This document shows, in pieces, positions 864 to 44,785 of a stretch of DNA of 64,000 nucleotides (positions are counted from its first letter, which is position 1; each line of letters opens with the position of its first letter). Source of the DNA: a virus (Duplodnaviria; Heunggongvirae; Uroviricota; Caudoviricetes); the IMG/VR virus record IMGVR_UViG_3300035522_000061, positions 1-64,000 of that record; one strand, given 5' to 3'. The translations under genes and the position numbers were made by a program. The notes below the pieces were generated by a model that was given only the letters and a program-made list of their open reading frames with translations, did no database searches and was not told the DNA's origin.

Positions 864-900
864 GAACGGGTACACTTTTCTGTGCCCGTTTTTCTCTATT
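864..900 (+). terminator. putative rho-independent terminator
   Basis: Imperfect hairpin AACGGGTACAC...GTGCCCGTT followed by a T-rich tract. Confidence 0.45.
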
Positions 901-1028
901 TTCCATATTCCTTCATTTTTCATTTTGTAATCTAGTTTATACTATTTTACAAAAACTATCTTTGTTCTAAAAAGTAATTTTTAAATAAGTAAAAAAAATT
1001 AATTTCTGAAAACTAAATAACTAAAAAT

Positions 1029-1241
1029 ATGAAATATATTGTAAAAACAGTAAATCCGATGGCATATTTTGAAAATGCTTTCGATTCCTATGCAGAAGCA
1101 CATGATTTTGTAAAAGATCACGTAGAAAAACTTAGTAACTGTGTAAACATTAAGGATATTAAGTTTCTGGATTTAGATACCTGCATATTTAAAATAATTG
1201 GTGCAGGGCATGGGATGATTATGATTTGTGAAAAGAATTAG
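1029..1241 (+). CDS. hypothetical protein
   Basis: 70-aa ORF whose stop abuts copy 1 of the conserved intergenic element. Confidence 0.45.
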   Translation: MKYIVKTVNPMAYFENAFDSYAEAHDFVKDHVEKLSNCVNIKDIKFLDLDTCIFKIIGAGHGMIMICEKN

Positions 1242-1318
1242 GTTGAAATTCCTGGGCATAAGCCCGAAATCCTTTCTGATTGGTGCTACCTTGACGTGGT
1301 AGAGAGGCTTTAAACTGA
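1241..1318 (+). repeat. conserved ~80-nt intergenic element, copy 1 (GGTTGAAATTCC - hairpin - AAATCCTT - ACCTTGACGTGGT..GGCTT)
   Basis: One of three near-identical copies (3429, 4587). Central hairpin here is GGGC-ATAA-GCCC. TTGACG, 17 nt, TAAACT resembles a sigma70-type promoter. Confidence 0.6.
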
Positions 1319-1333
1319 AAGCACCTTTGTATA

Positions 1334-1459
1334 ATGAAAAAAAAATTTATGATTATGGATAAAAGTAATATCAAAATCAGTAAAGTCTACTTTGAAGATA
1401 GAGTAGATCACTCTAAACTAAGTAATGAAGAAGCTTTAGCTATTTATTATGCAGATTAA
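1334..1459 (+). CDS. hypothetical mini-protein (41 aa, EEALAIYYAD C-terminus)
   Basis: Small ORF not in the track. Paralogous to the 3860..3967 mini-ORF (EEALAVYYSE). Lies just downstream of element copy 1. Confidence 0.35.
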   Translation: MKKKFMIMDKSNIKISKVYFEDRVDHSKLSNEEALAIYYAD

Positions 1460-1642
1460 GAGTATCTTAAGAAGAATTTCTTAAGTGGCACTCTGGAATA
1501 GACAGAGAACTTTTCGTAAAAGCTGAATAATATGTAGGCTTACTCCTGAATTGGTAATAGGAGTTGTGACGGCATCCAATATGGGTGTATGCGTGTGAGC
1601 ATTTATCTTGCACATTTGCCTCATTAAAGATAACCCAATGGC

Positions 1643-2146
1643 ATGGGAAATACTATGGCTGGACTAAGAACCAAACCAAACCTGAATACTCTTCCTAATA
1701 TAAAGAGAACTGAGAATAACAACTCAGTTTCCATAGAGATGATTATTCCAGAAAAGGATAGCCAGTACACTTACTTCGACTACGCTGCATATTCAGATGC
1801 AGTAGTACGTGCTCATGCAGGAGTGCTTATGGAGGCACTGAACAAGCGAGCAATGAACTGCGCTAAAAAGCTGCAGGACAACATAGGCAATATTCTGTCC
1901 AATGACGGATTGGTTATTGCCTACAAGTTGGAGAGTAATAATGCTGTAAAGCATTTTTCTCTCCCTGCGTATGAAGCAATGCAGAGAGGAATTGACTACC
2001 TTCGCGAGGATCGCTATGACGATTTTCTCCGTGATTCAGCTATTCTGATTCAGGCAGTAAAGGCTATCGCTGTATACGATGAACCAGTACGTTTTAAAGA
2101 CGAATTGGTATCAATATTAATGGACGAATTACTTCGAAACAAATGA
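1643..2146 (+). CDS. hypothetical protein
   Basis: 167-aa ORF with no recognised motif. Confidence 0.5.
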   Translation: MGNTMAGLRTKPNLNTLPNIKRTENNNSVSIEMIIPEKDSQYTYFDYAAYSDAVVRAHAGVLMEALNKRAMNCAKKLQDNIGNILSNDGLVIAYKLESNNAVKHFSLPAYEAMQRGIDYLREDRYDDFLRDSAILIQAVKAIAVYDEPVRFKDELVSILMDELLRNK

Positions 2147-2328
2147 TACTTGTATGGTATTTGACACTGGCAGCTGGAATCTTTGCATTCCAGTTGTTAG
2201 TGTCTCTTTACGGAACAAAATTGTTTGGTGAAGATTTGGAGAAATTTAATCATTTTTTTACTAATCTAGTCCTGTTCTCTTGGGCATTTTTATTCCTTGG
2301 AGGCATGATAGTATATATATTATGGTGA
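2143..2328 (+). CDS. small hydrophobic membrane protein
   Basis: 61 aa with two predicted TM helices. ATGA overlap with the upstream gene. Confidence 0.4.
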   Translation: MILVWYLTLAAGIFAFQLLVSLYGTKLFGEDLEKFNHFFTNLVLFSWAFLFLGGMIVYILW

Positions 2329-2329
2329 T

Positions 2330-2626
2330 ATGAAATGGTATATCGTTAACAAGAATAACGTATGTCTAGAGATGGAAGAGGTAAGAGAACTTTCTGATAA
2401 ATTAAATTATGATGAGAGTACTATCTTCCGCCTTTGTCTCTATGTTGGGAATTCCCTGCAAAAATATTCCACTGATCGGTGGGCAGATTGTTTGCAGGAG
2501 ATTCTTAAAAGTTACACTAATAGTCACAGCTTTGAAGATTTTGTGGATTTAATAGCCACAGATGATCTCATTGCGTTCATTTTTTGGATGCGTGAACATG
2601 GCTATTATATTTTCGTGGCATCGTAA
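2330..2626 (+). CDS. hypothetical protein
   Basis: 98-aa ORF tightly packed against its neighbours. Confidence 0.45.
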   Translation: MKWYIVNKNNVCLEMEEVRELSDKLNYDESTIFRLCLYVGNSLQKYSTDRWADCLQEILKSYTNSHSFEDFVDLIATDDLIAFIFWMREHGYYIFVAS

Positions 2627-2655
2627 GGGTTATAATTGTTTTCCTCCTCGAGCGT

Positions 2656-2970
2656 ATGCTTGAGGAAGTTTTAATAAAGAAGATTATGAAGAAGATTATT
2701 TTTAGTTTAGTGTTAATGTTGTTGGGGGTTTGTAATATTAATGCAGAAGTAGTGCGTACTGGTAATACATTTACTACTACTCAAACTACTACTGCTGATA
2801 CTAAAACAGCATATTTTTGGCAAGATAAAGAAGGTAATAAATATCCAATTTATAAGTCTAAAACTGGTTCTTTATATGTAAAGAGAATTAGTAAAAAGAC
2901 TGGTAAAGAGTATAAGTATTATCTGCCTAAAGCGACACAAGATCAAATAAAGTCTCAAACTGGTTTATAA
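2656..2970 (+). CDS. secreted small protein (signal peptide)
   Basis: N-terminal hydrophobic signal (IIFSLVLMLLGVCNINA) followed by a Thr/Lys-rich mature region. Confidence 0.45.
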   Translation: MLEEVLIKKIMKKIIFSLVLMLLGVCNINAEVVRTGNTFTTTQTTTADTKTAYFWQDKEGNKYPIYKSKTGSLYVKRISKKTGKEYKYYLPKATQDQIKSQTGL

Positions 2971-3191
2971 TGGAATTTATAGAATCTGTATTGACGGTTA
3001 TTTTTACAATAATTTTTTTCATCTATTTTATCACGGGAATTATTATAATTATCCGTGCATTTATGGGTGGGAAATAAGGATACGAGAAGAGTCCTATATT
3101 AAGTTCTTCTCAGCTATTAATTTCAAATACATCAGATTCAAACTCTGTTATTTAACGCGAGTTCTGGTGTAAATATTATGTTAGGATCACA

Positions 3192-3266
3192 GTAACTTAT
3201 TTAATTAAGTTATACTTCTTAGAAGTTGTGATCATTTATTCCCGCCGTAACTTAATTAAGTTATAC
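3192..3266. promoter_or_regulatory. pair of near-identical palindromic sites GTAACTTA(TT)TAATTAAGTTATAC
   Basis: Two copies (3192-3215, 3247-3266) of a site built on the perfect palindrome AACTTAATTAAGTT. They lie in a 590-bp region with no ORF. Confidence 0.45.
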
Positions 3267-3428
3267 TGGGATTTTATACTAGCTCCTCTTTAGGATTAAG
3301 CTGGTAACTATTTGTGATGATGCAGGCTCTCATTCACTATCAAAGCGCAGTATACAAAGTGGGAAAGTTGTATTACTGTGCAAAACCTGTAGGTTGGTTT
3401 ACCCTTTAGCTCCACCTAAAAATAAACT

Positions 3429-3510
3429 GGGTTGAAATTCCCTGGGATCGTGCGCACAATATCCCTAAAATCCTTCTTATATGAGTACCTTGACGTGGTT
3501 AGAAGGCTTA
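3429..3510 (+). repeat. conserved ~80-nt intergenic element, copy 2
   Basis: Same flanks as copy 1. The central hairpin is replaced by GGGAT-CGTGCGCACAAT-ATCCC, which still pairs. Confidence 0.6.
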
Positions 3511-3560
3511 TTAACTAACACTCATAAAATAACAAGAATATCAACTTAAAAACAATAAAA

Positions 3561-3863
3561 ATGATACAATTTACAAAAGACAAAGAAATCATCTTCGAAT
3601 CAAAAGTATCTGATGTCTTAAAAGATTTAGGATACATTGGATCTGACAGAATTGTGCACATCATTATTGGTGCGTCCGAAAGATTTTGTATGGATATTGA
3701 ACCACTTTCTTGGGCAGGAGTAGTTGGTCAATTGTATAAAACCATCTATAAAGAAACCGCAACTCCAAACGAATATGCAGGTAATGCTGCAATTCTCCTT
3801 CAAGTAGTATTTGCAATCATGGATCTCGAGAGATTGGGATTCAAATTAGAAGAAGAGCCATGA
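3561..3863 (+). CDS. hypothetical protein, DWAGVVGQLY family member 1
   Basis: 100 aa. Shares the WAGVVGQLY motif with the 4030..4341 ORF. Confidence 0.5.
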   Translation: MIQFTKDKEIIFESKVSDVLKDLGYIGSDRIVHIIIGASERFCMDIEPLSWAGVVGQLYKTIYKETATPNEYAGNAAILLQVVFAIMDLERLGFKLEEEP

Positions 3864-3967
3864 AGAAAGAAGATATTAAAGTACCAGCAGAGGTTTACTC
3901 TTTAGATAGAGAAGCCCATCCTACATTAACTCAAGAGGAAGCTCTTGCAGTTTATTACAGTGAGTAA
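3860..3967 (+). CDS. hypothetical mini-protein (35 aa, EEALAVYYSE)
   Basis: Not in the track. ATGA overlap with the upstream gene. Paralog of 1334..1459. Confidence 0.35.
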   Translation: MKKEDIKVPAEVYSLDREAHPTLTQEEALAVYYSE

Positions 3968-4029
3968 GTTTCATGTGTTTCCCTCCTTTAGACAATTTGT
4001 CTATTGGGGGGTTTTAAAAGAAGAAAGCA

Positions 4030-4341
4030 ATGAAAATAAGATTCAAAAATAAGAAACATTCTTTTACTGCTCCAGAACTAATTAACATTCTCGAAGAGCA
4101 TGGATATGATAATGCAGGTTACATGGTAGATTGTATTATGCTTGCTGCTGAAAATCTATCACAATATAACATGCCCTTTGATTGGGCAGGTGTTGTTGGT
4201 CAGTTGTACCAACATGTATTTGTTAGGGATTTAGGAGCTTATCATTGGTTTGAAGATGATATTGCAGACAATCTTCAAATTGTTAAAGCGATTTATCATA
4301 TATTCATAGACGAAGGAATTTATATAGTTAAAGAGGCATGA
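4030..4341 (+). CDS. hypothetical protein, DWAGVVGQLY family member 2
   Basis: 103 aa, paralog of 3561..3863. Confidence 0.5.
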   Translation: MKIRFKNKKHSFTAPELINILEEHGYDNAGYMVDCIMLAAENLSQYNMPFDWAGVVGQLYQHVFVRDLGAYHWFEDDIADNLQIVKAIYHIFIDEGIYIVKEA

Positions 4342-4577
4342 TACAGAAGACAATTAAGCTCGATGGTTATACCGAATTAGGTGTAATGGGGCATTGGGAA
4401 CCATTTCGTCACACAAGAAAGTATAAAGTCGATATTGAACTACCTGAGTATAATCGTGGTAGTATTGATATTGATGATATACCTTTTAAAGGTGCTTGGA
4501 CTACGGTTCAAATAGACGATATTATGTCAGACTTCGAGGAAATCGAAGGAGAAGCATATTGTCGTCCAGAGGATTAA
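4338..4577 (+). CDS. hypothetical protein
   Basis: 79 aa with an ATGA overlap. Followed by element copy 3. Confidence 0.45.
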   Translation: MIQKTIKLDGYTELGVMGHWEPFRHTRKYKVDIELPEYNRGSIDIDDIPFKGAWTTVQIDDIMSDFEEIEGEAYCRPED

Positions 4578-4586
4578 ATCCTCAGA

Positions 4587-4660
4587 GGGTTGAAATTCCC
4601 GAGACTTAGGTCTCAAAATCCTTCATAATATACACTACCTTGACGAGGTATGAAGGCTTT
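4587..4660 (+). repeat. conserved ~80-nt intergenic element, copy 3
   Basis: Same flanks as copies 1 and 2. Central hairpin GAGAC-TTAG-GTCTC differs in sequence again but still pairs. Confidence 0.6.
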
Positions 4661-4801
4661 TAACAGAATGTGTATAATCCTTTTTGTAGGTTTGAGTAGA
4701 GTGAAGTATAGTAGCTCTCGGTTAAAAATCTACTATGGCAAGCAAGATCTTGAATATAATGTTGGCATTAAAATGAATCTCTAGCTAACGGAGTAAAATC
4801 T

Positions 4802-5023
4802 ATGCAATTAGGTAAGCATTCAATTTTTGAAGAGTTTGAAGTTATAGGCTTAGGAAAGATTACTATCCAAGCAAATAAAAATTATGGAATTATCGACATA
4901 GAGCCGAGAATTCCAGAGATTTTCTCTAAGTACTACGGACGTCAGATTACTGATACTAGAGTTCTTGGTGAGTTAGTAGAAGATATGTATAACACTTTAA
5001 AGTCAGTAGAAAATGAGAAGTAA
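4802..5023 (+). CDS. hypothetical protein
   Basis: 73-aa ORF. Confidence 0.4.
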   Translation: MQLGKHSIFEEFEVIGLGKITIQANKNYGIIDIEPRIPEIFSKYYGRQITDTRVLGELVEDMYNTLKSVENEK

Positions 5024-5468
5024 AGATTTCAAACCTGAAGAGCATATCGCTGATTTGAACAACCTGAAAAGAAATCTAATGTGTTTAAACAGACCTTTTA
5101 GTAGAAGTCTGTTTATAAGTGGACTCAAAGGAATTGGTCTGCCGGACAATGATGTTTTTTGGATGGCAGTGAAACGTAGCGGTATTGTACAACAGCTGAG
5201 CAGAGGCTGTTACATATTCAAGAACGATAAGCCAATACATATTAGTGTGCTGGCTAAAATTCACAAAGACTATCGTAAGATAGTCTGTGATTATAGCAAG
5301 ACTTACAGAGAAAAGCATTCCTCAAAAGAAGTTGAGAAACCTGTAGAAGCTCATGTTCAACTAGAACCTGTACATGAACTTACTGAAGAAAATGCAGTCA
5401 AACTTCTGAAAGAGCTAGGCTATATAATATATAAGCCTGAGGTTGCGATTTTCTACAAAAAATTATAA
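5013..5468 (+). CDS. hypothetical protein
   Basis: 151-aa ORF, basic and Lys-rich. Confidence 0.45.
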   Translation: MRSKDFKPEEHIADLNNLKRNLMCLNRPFSRSLFISGLKGIGLPDNDVFWMAVKRSGIVQQLSRGCYIFKNDKPIHISVLAKIHKDYRKIVCDYSKTYREKHSSKEVEKPVEAHVQLEPVHELTEENAVKLLKELGYIIYKPEVAIFYKKL

Positions 5469-5503
5469 ATGGAGTTCATTTTTTAGTTTTTAGTTGGTTT
5501 GCG

Positions 5504-5666
5504 AAGATACCACTTGTTTACAATTTTTAACATCAAAAATTTGGAATTGTGCTCAAATAGTGGTATCTTTGCATTACTTACTCAGAGAAATAAAATATAA
5601 GGTGGCACACAGCAAATTATAAAAACTTAACTTGAAATTAAGGATTATTTTGCCACCTGTTTACAA
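5504..5666. promoter_or_regulatory. inverted- and direct-repeat region upstream of the tRNA array
   Basis: Inverted repeat AAGATACCACT/AGTGGTATCTT (5504-5514 and 5559-5569). Second inverted repeat AGGTGGCA/TGCCACCT (5600-5607 and 5651-5658). Direct repeat CCAC(T/C)TGTTTACAA appears twice. Confidence 0.35.
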
Positions 5667-5724
5667 GAATACTTACAGCAATTAATATTAAAATTAAATA
5701 TCTATATAAAGTATTCTGTAAGTT

Positions 5725-5800: not shown

Positions 5801-5872
5801 AGGGGTTATCGGTATTATTAATTTCTTCGGTTCTACTACTAGTCGAGTTCGACTCTCGACAACCCCTCTAAT
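5801..5872 (+). tRNA. tRNA-like gene (anticodon arm not resolved)
   Basis: Acceptor AGGGGTT/AACCCCT and T-arm TCGAG-TTCGACT-CTCGA. No clean anticodon stem could be folded by eye. Confidence 0.3.
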
Positions 5873-6045
5873 TTGTTTGTTTTTTGTCAAAGATCCATTT
5901 TATATTACTCGGTATGTGATATATAGAGTAATAGGGAGAAAGGTTAAAGTGAGTTCGATTCTCACACTCTCCCCTAATTTTTTAAATTGGCGAAACATTG
6001 TTAACACTGTTCTAACTCTATGTGAATATCGTTAGAACTTTTATC

Positions 6046-6117: not shown

Positions 6118-7372
6118 CTATGTTTTTGTTTATGATGTTATATTGAAGTCAGCCCTATGTGAATATCGCTGATTCTATTATTTCATTATTTGTGAATTAT
6201 TTAATTAAAAGTTCTTCACCCTATGTGAATATCGTGAAGTTTTAAGGAACTAAATGGTATATGAAGGTTCGATTCCTTCTAGTTCCACACTGTATTTTGA
6301 AGATAAGTTTTAGGTTCGTGAGAATATAGAATTAGGGAATAGATTATATTTTTAGTCTATTCCCGTATTTTTAAATAGGACTTATGATGGTTCTTCGAAT
6401 GAAGAAATCGTAACTACAAGAACATCTTTTAGATGTTAAAGTCTTGTTCTAAGACGTAACTGCTTAGAGGTGTTAGCCTACACGAGGGTATAAGGGCATC
6501 AAATAATTTTATATTTATGAAAAAGCAAGAAATTGTATTAAGTGCTTACATGTTAATTATGGCAATGTTAGCATTTGTGGTGGTATTTTAAAAGTAGGTT
6601 CGATTCCTACCTTGCTACAAAAAATCTTTGTCGCCGAGTAGCACCATACCAGCCTTGTAGGGAAGGTAAACTACGTAATAAGCTTTAAATCGTGGGGATT
6701 CCTTTACTAATACTAAAGGTGCATTGCGCAATATGATAGGTATTAGGATAGTACGAAGTACTAGACAGAAAGGCAGAGATTTAAGAGGAGAGTATTATTA
6801 CTTTCCTCTTTTAAAAGATTATACTTCAAGTGTTATATATACTTTTGTTATTTTCGTAGTTACAGGTTTGTGAAAATATGTAATTATGTTTGGGAAGATA
6901 TTGGTTATTTTGTAAGTTCGAATCTTACTCTTCCCACTCCTCATAGTTTCTCCAGCTATTAAAAATTGGAGGGATCGCCATCCGCCAGAGAGTATGGAAG
7001 TTAGGTCGCTTACTGTTAAAGGCGATGGGTTTGTTTGCTAATTTTGTTAACCCGATTAAAATTTCAAATTTAGCTATACAGTAAAAATACACTTAATGTT
7101 TGAAACAAACTTTAAATAGTTCCGAGGAAACTTGTATTTTACTGTTAAAGGTATTTAGGAGTAATTAGAAACTCGCATTAATTTGGAATATTACAATTAG
7201 TGAGTGTGGGGCAGTGCCACCTAAATATACTCTTCATGTGTTTAAGTTTTTTACTATTGCCTCTGTGAAGATCCAATAGTTTTAATTTTAAAAAGTATGG
7301 AATAGTTATTAAAATGGTGTTAGGAGATAGATTCAAAACCTAAAAATTCTCTTATTATAAAAATATTAAATT

Positions 7373-7480: not shown

Positions 7481-7621
7481 ATGAAAAAGTTATTGTTAGT
7501 TTTTGGTGTTGCGCTTCTTATGAGTGCTTGCTGTAATGGTTCTTCTACAGAATCTAGTACTGATTCAACAGATTCCGTTGTTGTTGATTCTGTAGCAGTT
7601 GATTCAACTGTTCAACTCTAA
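7481..7621 (+). CDS. putative small lipoprotein (46 aa) inside the tRNA array
   Basis: MKKLLLVFGVALLMSAC has a lipobox Cys. The mature region is a Ser/Thr/Asp-rich repeat. The ORF is below the track threshold. Confidence 0.35.
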   Translation: MKKLLLVFGVALLMSACCNGSSTESSTDSTDSVVVDSVAVDSTVQL

Positions 7622-8428
7622 ATGGCAATTTAGCGAGTTCGATTCTCGCTTAGAGTGCAAAAAGGATAGTATTCTAGTTTAATCCTTTAGTTACCCATGA
7701 TGGGTAACGTTACTCACTACTTTTAGGTATTAAGTAAAGTTTTTCAGAAAATGCTAGATTGCCTATTTCTGAAAATGCGCTTTTTAAAACGGCAAATAAA
7801 AAGGGTAGAGTACGCCCAAGTCATTTAGTCCTGTTCCTAACCACCTTCTAAATCTGACTTGTAAATATTAAGGTTTGTAAGGTGAGGTCGTAATGAAACA
7901 CTCAAATGGTTAGTCCTTTTGATGCCTATGTTAATGTTTAGCCATCAACGAACATTACGTTTATTAATATGTTAGTGTTAAGTGTTCCCATATCTATTAA
8001 ACTCAATCCTTTATGTATATTCTAGGAACTACAAATCAGAAAGCTTTTGTGATTATAGAAAGTGGAAAAGAAATTATTTTTACTTATGATTATACAAGAG
8101 CTAACCAGTATGAAAAAATAGGAGATGCTATGAAAATGGCAGCTACTATAAATCACATATTAGGAAAATGTATAATATCAATAATAAGTGGAAATTTTGA
8201 TTGATTTTACGTTATGCTTAAATATTTTAGGCATTGCCTTAATAGCTGTAATAAGCTATCTTTTTAAAACCTCAGTTTCTAGTAATCTGTAAACTAGTGA
8301 CTTTTCGAATTTTCAACAAGAAAACTAGGGTTTAGCACAACCTAAAAGTGAACTGACCAATGTCTATTGGTAAAAGAGGTTTTATTGTATTGGTGAGGTT
8401 TCCGATATGTAGAATAAGATCTCTTAAT

Positions 8429-8495
8429 TCCTTATAGCTTAACTGGATAAAGCGCAATATAGTATTGAGTTTTGGGTTCGAATCCCAATAAGGAA
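8429..8495 (+). tRNA. tRNA-like gene (degenerate anticodon arm)
   Basis: Acceptor TCCTTAT/ATAAGGA. D-arm GCTT...AAGC. T-arm TGGG-TTCGAAT-CCCA. The anticodon arm has only a 4-bp stem and a 5-nt loop. Confidence 0.35.
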
Positions 8496-8513
8496 ACAAT
8501 AATATTTTAGATT

Positions 8514-9172: not shown

Positions 9173-10768
9173 ATGATTATGTTTGACAAAAAATTAACAA
9201 ATCTCTTTGATGAGTCTATTGATGTAAAAAATCAATATGAAACAGTTTCAGAAAACGGAGCTGTAAAATATTCAACTTCTGGAAATGCTTTTATAGATAA
9301 TTTTGCTAGTATTGGTTCTTTTAGAGATCCTAGAGCATATTCTGAAGTAGCTAATGACATGGAACTTTTATGGAATGTAGATCCTTTAAAGTGTCTTAAA
9401 TTAGCAGTTTATATCCGAATGATTACAAGAGCTACTAAAAATGATGATGAAATATTAGAAGTACAAAAAGGACAAGGATTGAAAAATGAGGGCATTCTAA
9501 GAATAATCTGGATTGCAATTAATCATCCTAATACTTTTAAATCTAATATTTCTATATTTATATTAGCGGGTTCTTGGAAAGATATTTTCACAATGCTAAA
9601 TTTAGATTTACAATATCATGGTTGGAATAATCGTGTTTTAGATTGGAATTTTATGCTAGGAGTTATTCAAGCTGGATTAAGTAATAAAAATTGTACTAAT
9701 CTTGTTAGAAAATATCTTCCTACTATAAAGACTAATTCTAAAGCAACTACAATAAAATCACAAGCAGATACTATAATAGGCAGATGGATAGCTAAAAGTT
9801 TATTTAATTCTAAAGAATCTTTTAAAGAATATAGAAAACTTAAAAGTAAAGGTTCTGCTCATAAATGGCAGCAATTAATATCTAAACGATTATTTGATAA
9901 AATAGATTTTAATTCCGTTTCTGGGCGTGCTTTATCCCTTTTAGTTAATTCTAAATTTTTAGAAAATCAAAATCTTTCTAACAAATACTTAGAATGGATT
10001 AAAAATCAACCTATAGCTAAATATACTGGATATGTATTTGAACTCTTTAAACCTTGTGAAAATGTTACCCAAGTTCCAGAATATGTAAAGTACACTATTA
10101 ATGCACAATTCAAGAATTTATTGCAAGAATCTCCTTCTAAATTATTAGTTGTTAGAGATACTTCAGGTTCTATGATGAGTATGGTTCCTGGTTGTAAAGT
10201 AACTGCATTTACCATTGCTAAAGCTCTTGCATTATATTTTTCAACTGCTTTAACAGGTAAATTTAAAGATACTTATGCCGAATTTAATGATACTTGTGTT
10301 TTACACAAATGGAAAGGTTTAACTCCCGTTGATAAATATTTAAATGACACGCACTATAGCATTGGAAATACTAATTTTCAAAGTGTTATTGATTTGTTTA
10401 TTAACATGAAAATGCTTGGTTGTACATCTTTTCCAGAAGGTATTCTTTGCATTTCAGACGGGCAATTTGATAGTTGTGGTACTGTTTCTAATTTTAATAA
10501 GGCAATTGATAGACTTAGAAGAGCTGGATTTGATAAAGAATATATAGATAATTTTAAAATTATACTATGGGATATTCCAACTTGGACATCTTCTAAACCT
10601 AAGTTTGAAGATTTTGCAGATGCTCCCAATTTTTATCATTTGTCTGGATATGATCCTTCTATTATATCATTTATATTAGGAACTAAGAAGAAAAGTACTC
10701 CTAAAAACGCATTAGAATTGTTTGAATCTGCTATGGATCAAGAACTTCTTAATAGGTTAACAATATAA
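9173..10768 (+). CDS. large protein with vWA-like domain (DxSxS MIDAS motif)
   Basis: 531 aa. VVRDTSGSMMS is a MIDAS-like motif followed by an alpha/beta region. No other domain recognised. Confidence 0.4.
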   Translation: MIMFDKKLTNLFDESIDVKNQYETVSENGAVKYSTSGNAFIDNFASIGSFRDPRAYSEVANDMELLWNVDPLKCLKLAVYIRMITRATKNDDEILEVQKGQGLKNEGILRIIWIAINHPNTFKSNISIFILAGSWKDIFTMLNLDLQYHGWNNRVLDWNFMLGVIQAGLSNKNCTNLVRKYLPTIKTNSKATTIKSQADTIIGRWIAKSLFNSKESFKEYRKLKSKGSAHKWQQLISKRLFDKIDFNSVSGRALSLLVNSKFLENQNLSNKYLEWIKNQPIAKYTGYVFELFKPCENVTQVPEYVKYTINAQFKNLLQESPSKLLVVRDTSGSMMSMVPGCKVTAFTIAKALALYFSTALTGKFKDTYAEFNDTCVLHKWKGLTPVDKYLNDTHYSIGNTNFQSVIDLFINMKMLGCTSFPEGILCISDGQFDSCGTVSNFNKAIDRLRRAGFDKEYIDNFKIILWDIPTWTSSKPKFEDFADAPNFYHLSGYDPSIISFILGTKKKSTPKNALELFESAMDQELLNRLTI

Positions 10769-11923: not shown

Positions 11924-13852
11924 ATGTTACAAACTAGTTTTATTGTTGCAGGAATTCTTGTAGTTCTTGTAGTGTTGACCGTAATTGGTCTAATGTCGCG
12001 TTATCGTAGATGCGCAAGTGATGAAATTCTTGTAGTATTTGGTAAAGCTGGAAAGAAAACCCAGATTAATCCAGAAACTGGCAAGAGCGAAACAGTTGTT
12101 TTGCCTTCTAAAATTATTCATGGCGGAGGTACATTTGTATTTCCGATTATTCAAGATTGGCAAAAAATGTCTTTAACTCCTATACAGATTCAAACTTCTG
12201 TAGTTGGAGTATCTAGCCAAATGATTAAAGTAACTATTCCTGTAACATTAACTACTGGTATTGGTACTACTCAGGAGCTTATGCAAAATGCTGCTAGTCG
12301 TTTCTTAAATGCTGAATTAGAAGAAATTGCTAATCAAATTAAGGATATTCTTATTGGTGAAATGCGTAGTCTTATGGCTACTATGACCATTGAAGAAATT
12401 AATGCTGATCGCGGTAAATTCTTAGGTAAAGCAAAAGAGAACATTGAAACTGAAATTAATAAAGTAGGTTTCACTATTATTAATATTAATAATGCAGATA
12501 TTTCTGATGATGCAAATTATATTAAGAATTTAGGTAAGAAAGCAGCCACTAAAGCTCAAGCTCAAGCAGAAGCAGATATTGCAGAAGAAGAAAAGAAGGG
12601 TCAAATTCAAATTGCCGAAACTAACAAGGAAAGGGAAATTGCTGTTGCTAGTGCTGAAAAAGAGCGTGCTACTCAAGTAGCTCAGACTCAGCAAGAGCAG
12701 GAAGTAAGAGTAGCTGAAATTAATCAGGATAAGCAAATTAAATTGGCAGAAGCTGAAAAGATTAAGACTACTGGAGTCGCAGAACAACAAGCTGAACAGG
12801 CTGCTAATGTAGCTAATGCTAAAACTAAAGCAATAACTGCACAAGCAGAAGCAGATGCGATTAAAGAAGCTAATGTTGCTAAAGCAGAATCTGAAGCTGA
12901 ATCAGCTAAAGCAGCTAGAAAAGCAGAAGCTATTGCGTCAGTAGCCAAGTCTAATTCAGAAGCAGAATCTGCAAAAGCAGAAGCAGAAGCTCAGAAACAA
13001 ATTAGAATTGCTAAAGCACAGCAAGAAAAAGAAGCTGAAACTCAAAAAGCAATTAATGACCAGCAAGCTAAAGTTGCAGAGTATGAATCTACTAAGAGAC
13101 AGAAAGCAGCAGAAGCTAATAAGAAAGCTGGAGTAGCAGAGCAACGCGCAACTATTGAAGTAGCACAAGCTAAAGGAGAAGCAGCCAAAGCAGAAGCAGA
13201 AGCAATAAAAGTTGCTGGTACTTCTAAAGTAGAGGCTCAAATGTCAATTGCTAAAATTGAACAAGAGAAACAAATAGAAGTAAACGAAGCTAAAGCTTTA
13301 GCAGAACAAGCTAAATTGAATGCTGAAGTTATTGTTCCAGCTGAAACTGAGAAGGAGAAAATTCGTATTGAAGCTGAAGCGATTAAACAAAAAGCTATTC
13401 TAGAAGCACAGGCAGAAGCAGAAGCTATTCGAACTAAAGCTTATGCTGAAGCAAATGCTACTCAAACTAAGTTAGAAGCAGAAGCAGAGGGTACTAAAAA
13501 GAAACTTTTAGCAGAAGCAGAGGGTAAAAGAGCTTCTTTAATGGCTGAGGCAGATAAGGTACAAGCTATTGAGATGGCTCCTGCGCTTGCTGTTAAGCAA
13601 ATGATTGAAGCTGGATTGACTCCTGAACTTGTTGTAAATTATAAAACAGTAGATCAATTAGCAGATATTGCTACAGCACAAGCTAAGATATATGAGCATA
13701 TTCAGCTTGGTCAAGTTACTGTTTATGGTGGTGAAAATACTGCTGGTAACTTTATGTCTAATATGGCTAAGAATCTCAGTCCTGCAATGGATATTCTTGG
13801 TAATTTGCCTATTGCAGATACTGTTAAGAAAGTGTTTGGAAGTACTAAATAA
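11924..13852 (+). CDS. flotillin-like SPFH/band-7 protein with long Ala/Glu/Lys-rich (EA-repeat) coiled coil
   Basis: N-terminal TM helix, SPFH domain (ILVVFGKAGKK...IPVTLTTGIG...MTIEEINADR), then ~350 aa of AEAEA/KAEAE repeats. The C-terminus resembles bacterial FloT/YqiK. Confidence 0.75.
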   Translation: MLQTSFIVAGILVVLVVLTVIGLMSRYRRCASDEILVVFGKAGKKTQINPETGKSETVVLPSKIIHGGGTFVFPIIQDWQKMSLTPIQIQTSVVGVSSQMIKVTIPVTLTTGIGTTQELMQNAASRFLNAELEEIANQIKDILIGEMRSLMATMTIEEINADRGKFLGKAKENIETEINKVGFTIININNADISDDANYIKNLGKKAATKAQAQAEADIAEEEKKGQIQIAETNKEREIAVASAEKERATQVAQTQQEQEVRVAEINQDKQIKLAEAEKIKTTGVAEQQAEQAANVANAKTKAITAQAEADAIKEANVAKAESEAESAKAARKAEAIASVAKSNSEAESAKAEAEAQKQIRIAKAQQEKEAETQKAINDQQAKVAEYESTKRQKAAEANKKAGVAEQRATIEVAQAKGEAAKAEAEAIKVAGTSKVEAQMSIAKIEQEKQIEVNEAKALAEQAKLNAEVIVPAETEKEKIRIEAEAIKQKAILEAQAEAEAIRTKAYAEANATQTKLEAEAEGTKKKLLAEAEGKRASLMAEADKVQAIEMAPALAVKQMIEAGLTPELVVNYKTVDQLADIATAQAKIYEHIQLGQVTVYGGENTAGNFMSNMAKNLSPAMDILGNLPIADTVKKVFGSTK

Positions 13853-22071: not shown

Positions 22072-22847
22072 TTGCAGAATCATTACTTCATCAGATTGAA
22101 GTAGGTAGATTAGGTAAGCAGTGGGGATACTCAATGGGTCTCCCAAAATTAGAAGAGATAATAGATGGAGTATCTAGAGGAATTTATACTTTAGTATTTA
22201 GTCCTACTGGTAGTGGTAAGAGTTCACTTGCTTTATATTCTTATGTATATAGACCATTAATGGAACATCTTGATGATGGTAATTTTAAAGTTAGTTATTT
22301 TTCATTAGAGATGAGCGCCGAAATGATCTATGCTAAGATATTAAGTATGTATATCTTTGAAACTTATGGAATAGAGTTGTCTACTGGAGAACTTCTTTCT
22401 AGAAAACGTAATTATAAATTATCTGATGATTATTATAAAATAACTCAAGAATGTTTACCTTGGTTACAGAAGGTTGAAAAGATTTTAGTTATTTATGATA
22501 AAGCATTAAATGCTAGTAGTTTATATACAATCTTAATGGCTCAACTAGAAAAAGATGGCAAGTTTGAAGAAACAGATGGTAGAAAAATATATCATCCTAG
22601 TAATGAAGAACTTACTCATTTAGTAGTTATAGACCATTTAAGTTTAGTAAGAAGGTCTAATGGACGTACTCTAAAAGAAGAAATGGATTTAATATCCTCC
22701 TATTTGGTAACATTAAGAAATATATGTAAAATTAGTCCGCTTGTAATTATGCAAGCAAATCGAAATTCTACTTCTATGGATAGAAGAAAAGAAGGATTAA
22801 ATAACTTAAGAATTGATGATACCAAAGATACTGGTGCGCCAAATTAG
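22068..22847 (+). CDS. DnaB-like replicative helicase RecA-fold domain, exon 1 (gene interrupted)
   Basis: Walker A SPTGSGKSS, Walker B HLVVIDHLS and MQANR motif. The ORF stops just before the conserved arginine-finger region, which reappears ~250 nt downstream. Confidence 0.6.
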   Translation: MIAESLLHQIEVGRLGKQWGYSMGLPKLEEIIDGVSRGIYTLVFSPTGSGKSSLALYSYVYRPLMEHLDDGNFKVSYFSLEMSAEMIYAKILSMYIFETYGIELSTGELLSRKRNYKLSDDYYKITQECLPWLQKVEKILVIYDKALNASSLYTILMAQLEKDGKFEETDGRKIYHPSNEELTHLVVIDHLSLVRRSNGRTLKEEMDLISSYLVTLRNICKISPLVIMQANRNSTSMDRRKEGLNNLRIDDTKDTGAPN

Positions 22848-23091
22848 GGCTAGACGCACCTAAAACTCCGTTAAACGGGGAAACTCCTAAATAGGACAAT
22901 CCCGTGCTAAATCCTTTAGAAATAAAGGAAAACGCCTAACGACTAGAAGTGATGCTAAACAGGTAGAGCTGTAGCTATAAAATCTTCCACGAAAGCGGGG
23001 CACTGCTTACATTTGTAAGTTAAAGAGATAGTCTGAACTATATAGTAATATATAGAAGTATAAGATAAAGAACTTATACGATAACATTATG
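22837..23091 (+). mobile_element. putative group I intron in the DnaB-like helicase gene (no homing endonuclease; boundaries +/-10 nt)
   Basis: ~255-nt GC-richer non-coding gap between two halves of one helicase. The downstream half has no ATG. Confidence 0.4.
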
Positions 23092-23944: not shown

Positions 23945-24871
23945 ATGCAACAAAATAATTATTCATTTTATGTTCTTAAATCGGACATATCGCCAGACGA
24001 AATTCGTTATGTAGGAGTAACTACTCAAAAATTAGATAGAAGATTTTCTCAACATAAATACTGTGCTAACCATCCAGAAAAAAGAGGATTACCTGTTCAT
24101 AAATGGATATACTCTGTATATAAAAATGGGGGCTCAGTTATTATAGAGAAAATAGACGAATGCTCAGAAGAAGCTTGGGAAGCTAGAGAGCAATACTGGA
24201 TTAGTTATTATAAAAACCTTGGACATAAATTAATGAATATTGACAAAGGAGGAAAAGGTGTAATAACTAAAGAAAAAAGAAGTATTGATTCTCTTACAAG
24301 AGCAGGAAATGCCCATAAAAAACCGATAACAGCATTTAATTTAGATGGCACTAAATATAAAGATTTTGATTCTATTACTGAAGCAGCAGCTGAATTAAAC
24401 GGATCAATAACTAATATAGATAGTGTATTAAATGGTAATTCTAAATCAGCTTGTGGTTTTATATGGAAATATAAAACAGAAGAAGAAAAAATAGATTCTT
24501 ATAAAAAAGAATCTATTGGAATTAAAATATATCAGTTTGATTTATATGGAAATTTATTAAGAGAATTTGAAAGTAAAAAGTGTGTAATTCAATTCCTTAA
24601 TAAAAATAGCCACCACGCGTTGGATAAAGCCATAAAAAATAAAACTGAATATAAAAGGTTCTTTTGGGCATTAACTGATAAAATAAATATTTCCGAGTAT
24701 GTATCTCCATTTAAATATAAGATTACTAAAAATGGAGAGGAAGTAATTCAATTAATAGAACAAAAAGAAGTTGCTGAGTATTTATGTATATCTAAATCTG
24801 CTGTTAATCAGTGGTTAAAGAAATATAACGGATCGTTTTCATGTAATAATTATATTGTTGATACAATCTAA
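23945..24871 (+). CDS. GIY-YIG homing endonuclease
   Basis: N-terminal YSFYVL...IRYVGVTTQ...R, then FSQHK and N motifs. C-terminal repeated DNA-binding modules (NUMOD/IENR-like GFIWKYK, HTH). Confidence 0.65.
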   Translation: MQQNNYSFYVLKSDISPDEIRYVGVTTQKLDRRFSQHKYCANHPEKRGLPVHKWIYSVYKNGGSVIIEKIDECSEEAWEAREQYWISYYKNLGHKLMNIDKGGKGVITKEKRSIDSLTRAGNAHKKPITAFNLDGTKYKDFDSITEAAAELNGSITNIDSVLNGNSKSACGFIWKYKTEEEKIDSYKKESIGIKIYQFDLYGNLLREFESKKCVIQFLNKNSHHALDKAIKNKTEYKRFFWALTDKINISEYVSPFKYKITKNGEEVIQLIEQKEVAEYLCISKSAVNQWLKKYNGSFSCNNYIVDTI

Positions 24872-32485: not shown

Positions 32486-33837
32486 AATCTAAAAATTAAT
32501 TTTGTTTTATAAAACATATTTCGTATATTTATATGGAAATAGTAATTAATATATAGAAATATGAAATTTTATAAAAATTTAAATCTTGATGATCTTATTA
32601 ACTTACTTTTAAGAGGTGAAAAAACTCTTTCAGAAGTAACTAGAAATTATAAAGATACAGAACAAATAATTATAAATAGATTTAAGGAATTAGGATTTTA
32701 TAAAATAGAAAAAGGAAAGAATATAGTTTCCTGTGCTAAATATAAATATGCAGCTGATAAATATGTTGAATTGGGAGGTTTTCCTAATACAAATATTAAA
32801 GAATTAGCGTCAGAATTTAAAATTAGTGCTAATGAACTATCTGACTATATTTCTACTTATTATCCTGATATAAAAATTTTAGGAAAAGCGAATTTTAATG
32901 AATATATATTTGATTCAATTGATACTGAAGAAAAAGCGTATTGGCTAGGATTTTTATTTGCTGATGGAACTATTAGTTCTTCACCTTTAAGAAAAGAAGT
33001 TAAAACTCAATATCAAATTGAATTATCTTTATCTATCAAAGACTTGGAACATCTTGAAAAGTTTGCTAAATTTTTAGAATATAAGCAATCTTTATATAAA
33101 GATGAAATTAGGTGTAGATTAAGTGTATATTCTAAACATTTATGGAATATTTTAAATGTTAATGGCTGTACTCCTAAGAAATCATTAACTTTGAAATTTC
33201 CTAGAATTGAATTATTTAAATCTAAAGAATTGATATATCATTTTATTAGAGGATATTGGGATGGGGACGGCTGTTTAACTTGGAATGATAAAGAGCATAC
33301 TCGCCCAGAAGTTTCTGTCTTAGGAACAGATGAAATATTAAATTCTATTATTAAATTTATTTGTTCTAAAACACCTACTTTACATATTAATCACCCAGAA
33401 CAACAAAGTATTATTAAATATTTTAATTTAACTGGAAAGGACGCCTATGAAAGTATGTGCAAACTTTATAAAAATTCTACAATATATTTATCGAGAAAAT
33501 ATGAAAAATTTTTAGAATATTGCCGTCTATATGAGGAATCATATAGATAATTAGAAACCAAAATCGGGGAATACTGAGATGTTAATCCCGAGGTAATTAC
33601 AGAAATTAAAAAGTCTGTAACACCGTAACGCGTAGGACTTGAAACTTGTAAAAGAATAAAATAGTCCCAAGAGTGGTTTCCATCCCAACTGAAATAAGTG
33701 GATGAAAAGGTACGCTGAGCTATAGTGAATAGGAAACTATAGAAGTCAAGATAAAAAACTTGGCGATAACATAACTGAAAGACGACCAGTTCTGTAAAAA
33801 GGGACTTCCTCTCAACTTAGATGAAAAGTCTAAGGTA
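32486..33837 (+). mobile_element. putative group I intron carrying a LAGLIDADG homing endonuclease gene
   Basis: Homing endonuclease ORF flanked by non-coding sequence. The 290-nt stretch after the endonuclease gene is GC-richer and structured-looking. The downstream exon opens in frame without an ATG (the track start is TTG). Confidence 0.4.
32561..33550 (+). CDS. LAGLIDADG homing endonuclease
   Basis: Two LAGLIDADG motifs (LGFLFADGTI and RGYWDGDGCL). Confidence 0.7.
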   Translation: MKFYKNLNLDDLINLLLRGEKTLSEVTRNYKDTEQIIINRFKELGFYKIEKGKNIVSCAKYKYAADKYVELGGFPNTNIKELASEFKISANELSDYISTYYPDIKILGKANFNEYIFDSIDTEEKAYWLGFLFADGTISSSPLRKEVKTQYQIELSLSIKDLEHLEKFAKFLEYKQSLYKDEIRCRLSVYSKHLWNILNVNGCTPKKSLTLKFPRIELFKSKELIYHFIRGYWDGDGCLTWNDKEHTRPEVSVLGTDEILNSIIKFICSKTPTLHINHPEQQSIIKYFNLTGKDAYESMCKLYKNSTIYLSRKYEKFLEYCRLYEESYR

Positions 33838-42287: not shown

Positions 42288-43499
42288 ATGAAAGTAACAA
42301 AAAGAAACGGTGAGCCCGCTGAGTTTAATAGAAGTAAAATTGTAAATGCAGTTTCAGCAGCATTTAAAGAATGTGGGTACGAAAGTATCCCTAAAACTAT
42401 TGAGGAAATTGTAGATGAAGTCCAGATTTGGGATAATATCAGTATTGAAGATATACAAGATCAAGTTGAAGAACTTTTAATGGATTATGGATATTCAGAT
42501 GTAGCTAAAGCTTATATTCTTTATAGAGAAGAACGTAAGATGATCCGTGCTGAAAAAGATAAACTCATTAAAGGTATTAAATCTAAACTTGAAGCTTCTA
42601 ATGTAAAAAATCAAAATGCTAATATTGATGAGCATTCATTTGGTGGACGTATTGGCGAAGCAGGTAGAGTTGTAACTAAAGATTATGCTCTTAATTATTG
42701 TATGTCTGAAATGGCTAAGCATAATCATGAAAATAATGAAATATACATTCATGATTTGGATTCTTACGCTGTAGGGATGCACAACTGTTTGAGCATACCA
42801 GTAGATGACTTACTTGCTAACGGGTTTAAGCTAAAGCAAACTGATGTTAGACCTGCTAAGAGTATTAATACAGCATTTCAATTATTAGCTGTAATATTCC
42901 AAGTACAAAGTTTACAACAATTTGGTGGTGTATCTGCAACTCATTTAGATTGGACTATGGTTCCCTATGTAAGACTATCTTTTAATAAGCATTATAGAAC
43001 TGGATTGAAGTATATTGATCACATTCGTAATGAAAAATACGATCAAACAGATTTGTCTATAGAAGATAGTTTGTATAAAGAACATCCTAATTCTTATGAA
43101 TATGCTTTGGATATGACTAAACGAGAAATTCATCAAGCTGTTGAAGGTATGTATCATAATTTAAATACTCTACAAAGTAGAAGTGGTAATCAATTACCTT
43201 TTACTTCTATTAATTATGGTACTTGTACACAACCTGAAGGACGTCTTATTAGTCTAGCTTTACTTGAAGTAAGTAAGAATGGTATTGGTAGCCATCATAG
43301 CACTCCGATTTTTCCGTGCTGTATCGTTCAATTAATGAAAGGTGTTAATCGAAAACCTGGAGATCCGAATTATGATATATTCCAAGAAGCTACTAAGGTT
43401 ACGAGTCTTAGGTTATACCCTAATTATGCCAATGTAGATTGGTCTGGTAATGAAGGGTATGATATAAACGATCCTCGCACTTATTTCAGTACAATGGGT
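42288..43499 (+). CDS. nrdD: anaerobic ribonucleoside-triphosphate reductase NrdD, exon 1 (ATP cone plus N-terminal catalytic region)
   Basis: ATP-cone start MKVTKRNGEPAEFNRSKI. The ORF-track ORF runs to 43505 (...YFSTMGK*). The proposed exon ends after STMG at 43499. Confidence 0.7.
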
Positions 43500-43792
43500 A
43501 AGTGAAAACTGCAGCCCATTTAAAATCTCTTTAACCCTGCTTAAGGGGTGTTTCTATTTAAGCGTAGAAGCTAACGGTTAGGTCTTATTATATAATTGCA
43601 GTGTAAATAATAAGATGAGACCGTGCTAATGTACTTATAGTTATATTAGTACAGAATGTGTATCGACTAAGGGTGATGAGTGTAGCCCTGTAGGATCGGA
43701 GATAAGCACCGATTCCAAACAAGAGACAACTCTTTGTTGTGAAACAAGGAATGAACATATAGTCAGTTCCGATGGTGACATTGGGTAAAATG
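43500..43792 (+). mobile_element. putative group I intron in nrdD (no ORF)
   Basis: 293-nt GC-richer insert. Splicing after ...ATGGGT (U at -1) to TGTAGA... (intron ends in G) gives STMG|CRTANGW. T4 nrdD/sunY is a known intron-containing precedent. Confidence 0.5.
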
Positions 43793-44785
43793 TGTAGAAC
43801 TGCGAATGGCTGGGATATTAATGGTTTTGGTCAACTTAAAGATGGTAGAGGTAATATCTGTCCTGTTACAATCATACTTCCTACACTTGCAATGAATTCT
43901 AAACTGCAAGCTATATCTAATATGGATAATGCAGATGTAAATATCAAGGATTTAGTATGGAATAAATTTATTGAATTGTTGGATACTAAGATTCATGAAG
44001 CAAAAGATATGCTAATTGAACGATTTGATTGGATATGTAGTCAAGATGCTGCATCCGCTAAGTTTATGTATCAAAATAATGTAATGTATGGATATAAACC
44101 TGAAGAAGGTATCCGTTCAGCATTAAAACATGGTACTTTAGCTATTGGTCAATTAGGATTATCAGAAGCTTTGAGAATTATTTTCGGTAAAGACCACACT
44201 GATTCAGAAATTATGGATAAAGCTAAAGAATTAGAAGCTCTCTTTAAGAAGAGATGTAGTGAATTCAAAGAAGCTTATAAACTTAATTTTGGTGTTTACT
44301 ATACTCCTGCTGAAAATCTGTGTTATACAGCAATGCAGAAATTTAAGAAGCAATTTGGCGAAGTTCCAGGAATTACAGAACGTGAGTTCTTTACTAATAG
44401 TATGCACGTACCTGTATGGCATGAATGCACTCCATTTGAGAAAATTGAAATTGAATCACAGCTTACTGGTTTCAGTAGTGCAGGTTGTATAACTTATGTT
44501 GAATTACCTGCTTCTACTAAGCATAATCCAGAAGCTATTGAAGAGATTGTTAATTATGCAATGGATCATGATATTCCATACTTTGCCATTAATGTACCAA
44601 ATGATTCTTGTCAAGACTGTGGTTATATTGATGAATTGAATGATACTTGTCCTATGTGCGGTAGTAAAAATATCAAACGATTACGTCGTGTAACAGGCTA
44701 CCTTACCGGAGACTACAAGACGTCATTTAACGTTGGTAAGCAACAGGAGGTCGAACAACGAGTTAAACATATAAAAGAATTATAA
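43793..44785 (+). CDS. nrdD: NrdD exon 2 (glycyl-radical C-terminal half)
   Basis: Glycyl radical motif RRVTGYLTG near the C-terminus and Zn-ribbon CQDCGY...CPMCGS. The track ORF begins at 43772 inside the putative intron. Confidence 0.7.
   Translation, partial: CRTANGWDINGFGQLKDGRGNICPVTIILPTLAMNSKLQAISNMDNADVNIKDLVWNKFIELLDTKIHEAKDMLIERFDWICSQDAASAKFMYQNNVMYGYKPEEGIRSALKHGTLAIGQLGLSEALRIIFGKDHTDSEIMDKAKELEALFKKRCSEFKEAYKLNFGVYYTPAENLCYTAMQKFKKQFGEVPGITEREFFTNSMHVPVWHECTPFEKIEIESQLTGFSSAGCITYVELPASTKHNPEAIEEIVNYAMDHDIPYFAINVPNDSCQDCGYIDELNDTCPMCGSKNIKRLRRVTGYLTGDYKTSFNVGKQQEVEQRVKHIKEL

Follow-up and report, generated by a model that had tools for sequence, protein, structure and literature searches.

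The window analysed here is a stretch of 64,000 nucleotides (nt) of the IMG/VR virus record IMGVR_UViG_3300035522_000061 (positions 1 to 64,000; Caudoviricetes). It is the part of the genome of a large gut-type phage that holds its replication and early region, with tRNA genes; the nearest GenBank relatives of the phage are uncultured human-faecal phages with about 40% protein identity. Between positions 1241 and 4675 an element is found in three copies that lie 8-130 nt 5' of start codons, in a region in which all open reading frames (ORFs) are on the + strand. An initial annotation had described a conserved element that punctuates cassettes of small paralogous genes, and both paralog pairs that it named were recovered, the WAGVVGQLY proteins of 100 and 103 aa (E=8e-12) and the mini-proteins of 41 and 35 aa (E=2e-10). 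The analysis of sequence and covariation described below led us to conclude that the three repeats are probably minimal self-cleaving ribozymes resembling that of hepatitis delta virus (the HDV-like class), which would represent an undescribed variant with C at the first position after the cut (C1 type) and with a conserved hairpin module on its 5' side.

The exact 12-mer GGTTGAAATTCC occurs three times in the window (starts 1241, 3430 and 4588), always on the + strand, and the box ACCTTGACG is found once in each copy (1288, 3487 and 4637), which agrees with the three copies first described. The blocks AAATCCTT, ACCTTGACGWGGT and AGGCTT are also common to the copies, and the core motif RCCTNNNCGNGGY was detected 3 times in the window, whereas 0.08 occurrences are expected. 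The three paired hairpins of differing sequence described earlier (GGGC/GCCC, GGGAT/ATCCC and GAGAC/GTCTC) are present as well. While the copies themselves were correctly located, their ends had been placed too early: the 3' strand of a pseudoknot, P2, lies beyond them, so that the elements run 15-17 nt further 3', to 1325, 3526 and 4675. The copies and their predicted parts (P, paired region; J, joining region; L, loop), with match scores to a covariance model of the core, are as follows.

1241-1325, + strand: copy 1, whole element
3430-3526, + strand: copy 2, whole element
4588-4675, + strand: copy 3, whole element
1241-1252, + strand: copy 1, GNRA hairpin GGUU-GAAA-UUCC with two G-C pairs and two U.U mismatches; this 12-mer is identical in the 3 copies
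1253-1266, + strand: copy 1, variable hairpin UGGGC-AUAA-GCCCG, with 4 of 4 counted pairs covarying in the relatives
1267-1270, + strand: copy 1, linker AAAU, with predicted cleavage between 1270 and 1271
1271-1325, + strand: copy 1, predicted ribozyme core, from segmentation, covariation and a model match of 65.8 bits
1271-1277 with 1301-1307, and 1282-1287 with 1320-1325: copy 1, P1 and P2
1288-1290 with 1298-1300: copy 1, P3, closing L3 at 1291-1297
G1293 with C1308: copy 1, P1.1; the C at the catalytic position is C1315
3430-3441, 3444-3465 and 3466-3471, + strand: copy 2, 5' module of GNRA hairpin, variable hairpin and linker UAAAAU
3471/3472: copy 2, predicted cleavage
3472-3526, + strand: copy 2, predicted ribozyme core, model match of 57.8 bits
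3472-3478 with 3500-3506, 3480-3486 with 3520-3526, and 3487-3499: copy 2, P1 (6 of 7 paired), P2 and P3/L3
G3492 with C3507: copy 2, P1.1; the C at the catalytic position is C3515
4588-4599, 4601-4614 and 4615-4619, + strand: copy 3, 5' module of GNRA hairpin, variable hairpin and linker AAAAU
4619/4620: copy 3, predicted cleavage
4620-4675, + strand: copy 3, predicted ribozyme core, model match of 70.9 bits
4620-4626 with 4650-4656, 4628-4634 with 4669-4675, and 4637-4649: copy 3, P1, P2 and P3/L3
G4642 with C4657: copy 3, P1.1; the C at the catalytic position is C4664, and J4/2 reads CAGAA

Relatives of the element were collected from IMG/VR and from metagenomes. Scans with loose DNA patterns returned mostly chance matches, contigs L007, L096 and L253 being true among the matches listed, and one metagenome scan gave about 40 true members. 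Among GenBank phages no relatives were found by megablast of 1000-5500 or by blastn of copy 3; a genome collection contributed one true match (L345, a contig binned with a Lachnospiraceae metagenome-assembled genome), and a search for contigs encoding the same content returned only near-identical fragments of the same phage. All 46 of 46 elements are intergenic, and about 95% of the flanking ORFs are on the same strand as the element.

The 3' ~55 nt of each copy have the layout of a minimal HDV-like (theta-type) ribozyme. P1 is formed by CCTTnnn and nnnAAGG around the hairpin ACC-TTGACGW-GGT, with compensatory differences between the copies. In every relative, the bases immediately 5' of ACC are complementary to a stretch that follows the conserved AAAC-UAAA linker, and in the window the P2 strands read GGTGCT/AGCACC (copy 1), TATGAGT/ACTCATA (copy 2) and ATATACA/TGTGTAT (copy 3). 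The segments come in the order of a helix strand, a pseudoknot strand, a hairpin of 3 bp whose loop has 7 nt, the 3' strand of the helix, a linker, C-N-R-A and the 3' strand of the pseudoknot. This nested double-pseudoknot order, including P1, P2, P3, P1.1 and J4/2, was found in the 39 members that were segmented, and since it is the topology of the HDV-like class, the element was identified as a probable HDV-like ribozyme. Copy 1 is parsed as CCTTTCT-GATT-GGTGCT-ACC-T-TG-ACGT-GGT-AGAGAGG-CT-TTAAA-CTGAA-AGCACC, and the phage ribozymes in the tables of the theta study as P1-J1/2-P2-ACC-T-CC-ACGT-GGT-P1'-GG-linker-CTAA(N)-P2' (PMC10879173).

The individual parts also agree with this class. P1 has 7 positions, of which 94.9% are paired, and its 3' strand directly follows that of P3, as expected for a P1 of 6-7 bp. 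P3 is ACC/GGU (3 bp) and closes a 7-nt L3 of the form U-Y-N-A-C-G-W, in which U1, A4, C5 and G6, together with the C of J4/2, are invariant over 28 distinct members; the class as a whole has an L3 of 7-8 nt in which U at position 20 and G at position 25 are conserved. J4/2 was assessed at the level of sequence and lies as C-N-R-A 0-2 nt 5' of the P2 3' strand in 28 of 28 members, with C-A-U-A in a subfamily. The subfamily with L3 UUCACGU carries an extra covarying hairpin exactly at the position of P4 in HDV; in these P4-bearing members (8 of the 28) only the CC/GG pairs are kept within P3. When a covariance model was built from the core alone, the window copies scored 58-71 bits.

To quantify the pairing, the 28 distinct members were cut into fixed segments and aligned without gaps (alignment A4). 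Paired cells amounted to 89.8% versus 59.9% after shuffling, and the covariation score was 0.77, a value reached by 0 of 500 shuffles, versus 0.165; with the partners slid by 1-3 columns it was at most 0.146. Changes on both sides were found for 5 of 7 pairs in P1 and 5 of 5 in P2. In the upstream variable hairpin 4 of 4 counted pairs covary, with 97% paired. P1.1, which joins L3 position 3 to the base after P1, is GC in 13 members, CG in 8 and AU in 7, and is never unpaired, while P3 is invariant and therefore uninformative on covariation. Cells with G.U (22) far exceed those with A.C (1), which indicates that the + strand RNA is the folding strand. The earlier suggestion of a structured RNA family in which structure is conserved over sequence is thus confirmed by the covarying helices of these relatives. 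Covariation of the variable hairpin had been recognised correctly, but this is one of four covarying pairings; P1, the P2 pseudoknot and the single P1.1 pair had been missed.

Other structures were considered and set aside. An 8-bp P1 with the cut one base upstream was rejected, as it would destroy the perfectly covarying P1.1 pair. Reading GGUUGAAAUUCC as tRNA-like or as a T-loop, together with an anticodon-like loop, was given up after the pseudoknot and the theta layout had been recognised, and a mimic of CRISPR repeats was rejected because the hairpin differs between copies inside one genome. No supporting evidence was found for an integron attC-like site or for a riboswitch.

The initial annotation had further proposed a sigma70-like early promoter with an upstream attenuator hairpin, perhaps read by a sigma factor of the phage. 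TTGACG does resemble a -35 hexamer, the copies are located upstream of genes, and the sigma factor gene reported at 52.2 kb is present (52221-53078; RpoD/RpoS-like), but nothing ties this factor to the elements. The spacers between TTGACG and TAAACT, TTAACT or TTAACA measure 14, 15 and 14 nt and not the 17 nt given before, and with this spacing the promoter reading fails. Promoter-like sites with a sigma70 spacer of 16-18 nt are not enriched either (21 in 900-5700, compared with 20.7 expected). In the relatives TTGACG changes to TCAACG, TTCACG or TTAACG in step with the distant base after P1, which fits an RNA base pair and not a -35 box. In the ribozyme fold the supposed -35 is loop L3, and the supposed -10 (TAAACT) is the J1.1/4-J4/2 linker with the C at the catalytic position. 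Since four covarying helices and a G.U to A.C ratio of 22:1 would not be expected for a DNA site, we regard a promoter as highly improbable.

Several points weigh against the identification of the elements as HDV-like ribozymes. No model of Rfam 15 matches them, neither in the window at the gathering score, nor in 900-5600 at E up to 10, nor in 4560-4700 (141 nt) with lax filters. The search patterns fixed TTGAAATTCC, AAATCC and ACCT..ACG, and the invariance of these positions is partly due to ascertainment; likewise, P2 and hairpin columns in A4 had been fitted manually to the model, which makes their 100% pairing partly a matter of construction. The +1 base is C, paired as C1-G37, in all members with the GNRA module, in place of G1.U37 or G1-C37, and the G1.U37 wobble is described as crucial for the activity of HDV. 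Finally, P1.1 consists in most members of one Watson-Crick pair and a U.U at the second position; the CPEB3 ribozyme likewise has one G-C pair and a putative U-U there, and its P1.1 was melted in crystals.

As P2 had been registered by its own pairing, cognate and non-cognate strands were compared with their positions constrained. In 14 of 14 types the cognate strands paired over 5 bp or more (mean 6.2 bp), whereas non-cognate strands formed 2.5 bp on average and reached 5 bp in 5.6% of cases. The unconstrained version of this comparison, over the whole tail, was uninformative in the AT-rich sequence.

Subsequently, IMG/VR was rescanned with the last P1 positions left free, to test whether C1 was an artefact of the patterns. 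This gave a wider family, 45 distinct ribozymes whose L3 is UUGACGU and in each of which 6-7 of the 7 P1 pairs form. The +1 base is C in 33 by parse, G in 9, and in 3 was parsed as T but read as C. G1 examples are located directly after tRNA-Arg, which is the classical theta context, whereas C1 examples either adjoin the end of a tRNA (two of them in L389 and one in L350) or stand behind a hairpin by themselves. The tRNA-linked C1-type ribozymes (L389 2630-2676 and 2992-3038, L350 10449-10495, all on the - strand) follow tRNA-Leu, tRNA-Lys and tRNA-Asn, and the one in L350 starts one base past CCA; C1 ribozymes in this context would escape the published G1 motif. The -1 base is never G in the 45 members, in agreement with G-1 being given as the slowest variant in HDV (PMC1874588). 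Moreover, the L1Tc ribozyme is active although its product starts at C1, with a G-C-rich P1 (PMC3185411), so that C1 in the phage elements does not exclude activity.

An HDV-like fold that has lost cleavage, or cleaves to a negligible extent, and serves as a knot in the 5' untranslated region, a protein-binding site or a barrier to RNases would account for the replaced wobble and for a P1.1 reduced to one pair and a U.U, given that the wobble is described as important in the literature and that melting of a weak P1.1 has been shown. The conserved 5' module, which known HDV-like ribozymes do not need, could in that case be the binding site. Yet the C at the catalytic position and the L3 bases U...ACG are invariant over 21 independent types of P1/P2, which would be difficult to account for if there were no catalysis. 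L1TcRz cleaves with C1 and CPEB3 with the same weak P1.1, and C1 cores placed exactly at tRNA 3' ends (L389, L350) are sensible only if they cut. A non-cleaving fold is therefore considered unlikely, and self-cleavage remains the favoured reading.

The 5' module upstream of the predicted cut comprises 30-42 nt and consists of GGUUGAAAUUCC, then a stable hairpin whose sequence is free, and then (U)AAAAU. With the core-only model two copies were recovered that the patterns had missed, and their 12-mers, GGUUGCAAUUCC and GGUUGAAAAUCC, both keep GGUU-GNRA-UUCC, one with a GCAA loop (L007) and the other with U.U changed to U-A (L263). Because these are only two variant events, the evidence for the GNRA hairpin is weak. 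Three members found without the module as a constraint (L359, L365 and L375) nonetheless have it, together with the UAAAAU linker. The wider C1 family lacks the GNRA hairpin, yet 11 of 15 members have a stable hairpin whose end lies 0-3 nt 5' of the cut; in the tRNA-linked members the acceptor stem occupies the place of this upstream hairpin. Known HDV-like ribozymes require nothing 5' of the cut, and upstream structure has been reported to assist the genomic HDV ribozyme in folding. For the GNRA hairpin, docking on the ribozyme and binding of a factor are both conceivable. It is also possible that GGUU pairs alternatively with AAU/C across the cut site (slash), and the L007 variant, with C at -1, would strengthen this pairing.

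Theta ribozymes (Kienbeck et al., 2024; PMC10879173) are the closest match in layout: as tabulated there, they share with the elements the order and sizes of the segments, a P1 of 6-7 bp, a short J1/2, a P2 of ~7 bp that abuts P3, ACC/GGU in P3, an L3 of U-NN-ACGU, a short linker in place of P4 and CUAA(N) in J4/2. The 526 matches of that study without a tRNA association were left without a function by its authors (PMC10879173), and they resemble the elements described here in occurring in phage contigs, some from gut metagenomes, in sense orientation and between genes (PMC10879173). The differences lie in the +1 base, which is G in the theta rows that were compared but C in a C1-G37 pair here, and in P1.1, for which the theta rows give two pairs (CC/GG, UC/GA or GC/GC; PMC10879173), while one pair and a U.U are formed here by L3 UG opposite CU. 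A location within +/-5 nt of a tRNA 3' end, which defines tRNA-associated theta ribozymes, was not found for the window copies: the nearest tRNA is at 5725, and the copies follow ORFs or non-coding DNA. Furthermore, unlike in theta ribozymes, the cut site is preceded by a GNRA hairpin that is conserved, a hairpin of variable sequence and a linker rich in A. The 9-nt L3/P3 strings of the window copies and the P1 5' strands of six members did not occur among the rows of the theta supplement that were compared (PMC10879173), and the published theta motif misses these elements.

L1Tc shares with the elements a product that begins with C1 and the G-C-rich start of P1 (PMC3185411), but it is eukaryotic, borne by a retrotransposon, larger, doubles as a promoter, is unrelated in sequence and lacks a GNRA module. 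CPEB3 also has a 7-nt L3 with ACGU and U at position 2, and a weak P1.1; it differs in G1, a full P4 and its intronic mammalian context. Its L3, UUCACGU, is also the L3 of the P4-bearing subfamily.

The claim that the element punctuates gene cassettes was supported by comparison with the related contig L007. In blastn, 1240-1325 of the window aligned at 85% and homology resumed in 3078-4797 at 92.5%, its start coinciding exactly with the 5' end of copy 1. The gap between the two segments corresponds to the following feature.

1326-3077, + strand: cassette of six ORFs absent from L007, its left edge being the 3' end of copy 1

This indicates an insertion or deletion bounded by ribozyme copy 1. 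The comparison covers one pair of genomes, with breakpoints at both ends of copy 1, and one pair is too few for statistics. Over the whole family the downstream genes are unrelated (25 clusters for 33 elements), while 14 elements of the P4-bearing subfamily share one upstream gene.

These borders can also be taken to mean that the repeats are primarily DNA recombination sites, portable blocks of homology whose RNA fold is secondary. In addition to the coincidence of both ends of copy 1 with borders of homology or cassette, the contrast between one shared upstream gene and many downstream clusters fits such a role, which is known from the promoter early stem-loop (PeSL) elements of phages (PMC2839356, PMC4122927). 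It leaves unexplained the compensatory changes in four helices, the strand asymmetry and the conservation of the catalytic bases, and as the primary function recombination is very unlikely; a repeated functional RNA more likely has it as a by-product or as a second role. A ligand- or protein-responsive pseudoknot that regulates downstream translation in the manner of a riboswitch would in turn suit the compact fold, the conserved unpaired bases and the position 8-130 nt 5' of start codons. Such a regulator is extremely improbable, as the downstream genes are unrelated, no expression platform was found and the HDV-like core already accounts for every conserved feature.

Further observations were made in the vicinity of the elements. 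The L007 counterpart of copy 1 (7757-7834, - strand) has lost 8 nt, ACCTTGAC, and with them the 5' strand of P3 and half of L3; it is probably an inactivated ribozyme. Homology to L007 ends at 4797, and L398, which is the same phage assembled independently, has a break at 4798, ~120 nt 3' of copy 3; this position may be another variable junction. Terminator-like hairpins are enriched in 900-5700 (11 versus 1.7 expected), one of them at 2645-2666 between two small ORFs, and the early region may combine terminators with ribozymes. A palindromic site, GTAACTTA(T)TTAATTAAGTTATACT, is present in two copies (3192-3216 and 3247-3267; 51-55 bp apart) within a 350-nt non-coding stretch 5' of copy 2 that is conserved in L007. 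The two resemble a pair of operators for a dimeric DNA-binding protein.

In the remainder of the window a group I intron (70 bits) lies beside a GIY-YIG/NUMOD endonuclease gene, three genes encode LAGLIDADG endonucleases, nrdD is divided between two ORFs and the halves of polA flank a LAGLIDADG gene (22798-23055, 23945-24871, 32561-33550, 42288-44785, 46012-46920 and 53155-56448 for these selfish elements and split genes), an unusual wealth of selfish elements for one region. Among the phage tRNA genes, three tRNA "minihelices" of ~42 nt (5934-5974, 6246-6287 and 7615-7657) consist of an acceptor-like stem of 7 bp, 8-11 nt and a T-arm whose loop is GUUCGAUUC, without D or anticodon arms; one of them scored 29 bits with the Rfam tRNA model. 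Possible roles are those of decoys or of substrates for enzymes that act on tRNA. A longer odd tRNA-like sequence at 5802-5868 was called by no tool, and a full-length tRNA at 8428-8496 (Rfam 50.9 bits) was detected in a lax regional scan only, having been missed by ARAGORN and by the whole-window gathering scan. Four contigs with members of the ribozyme family (L349, L365, L375 and L385) also encode a tRNA with the anticodon CTA (amber suppressor; labelled Pyl by ARAGORN), which hints at stop-codon recoding in some of these phages; no tRNA with this anticodon was found in the window. A 531-aa protein with DUF2828 and DUF7788 is encoded at 9173-10768 and has no sequence relative in the PDB; a Y-RNA as its partner found no support. 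Just 3' of the tRNA region, 11924-13852 encodes a 642-aa SPFH/flotillin-like protein.

From the fold, strand, family resemblance and genomic position observed for the elements, we infer how self-cleaving ribozymes at these places would act. The element, with its 5' module and its 3' ribozyme core, would be transcribed together with the early genes, and if it behaves like its relatives the transcript would cut itself just 5' of P1, after 1270, 3471 and 4619, leaving 2',3'-cyclic phosphate and 5'-OH ends. A long early transcript could in this way be divided into cassette-sized messages, of which the upstream one would end in a protective hairpin and the downstream one would begin with a 5'-OH and a compact pseudoknot. 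Shielding of the ribozyme fold from flanking coding sequence may be a further effect of the upstream hairpins. In phage T7, RNase III sites between the early genes cut the polycistronic transcript into stable mRNAs; there a host enzyme is used, whereas here the RNA would cut itself. The PeSL cassettes of T4-type phages are likewise short, repeated intergenic stem-loop motifs that flank small accessory genes (PMC2839356, PMC4122927), lie in early variable regions and coincide with breakpoints of insertion, deletion and replacement (PMC2839356, PMC4122927). A PeSL combines a promoter with a stem-loop that acts like a terminator in transcription, while here a promoter is unsupported and the repeat is a predicted ribozyme.

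A more far-reaching proposal, which we put forward tentatively and consider possible but rather doubtful, is that of a previously undescribed composite punctuation module, in which the 5' module tunes or gates the cut of a C1 ribozyme that both processes polycistronic early RNA into messages stabilised separately and, as a repeated block of homology, mediates the exchange of accessory-gene cassettes between phages. Gating could occur through docking of the tetraloop, a bound factor or the alternative GGUU:AAYC pairing across the cut site. As a corollary of this proposal, C1 would be the majority form and would have been systematically missed.

If such a module exists, it would be a ribozyme-based counterpart of PeSLs. 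The cutting of early transcripts at cassette borders, as proposed above, would give a concrete role to the orphan HDV-like ribozymes of phages that are not associated with tRNAs. The coincidence of the element with cassette breakpoints, as seen against the related L007, would link RNA processing with genome modularity. The conserved GNRA hairpin 5' of the cut has no counterpart in known HDV-like ribozymes and is possibly the first peripheral or regulatory 5' domain of the class, and the combination of C1-G37 with a weak P1.1 offers natural material on the question of how essential the G1.U37 wobble is. Finally, because descriptors that require G1, as well as Rfam, miss the C1 form, present counts of HDV-like ribozymes in viromes probably fall substantially short.

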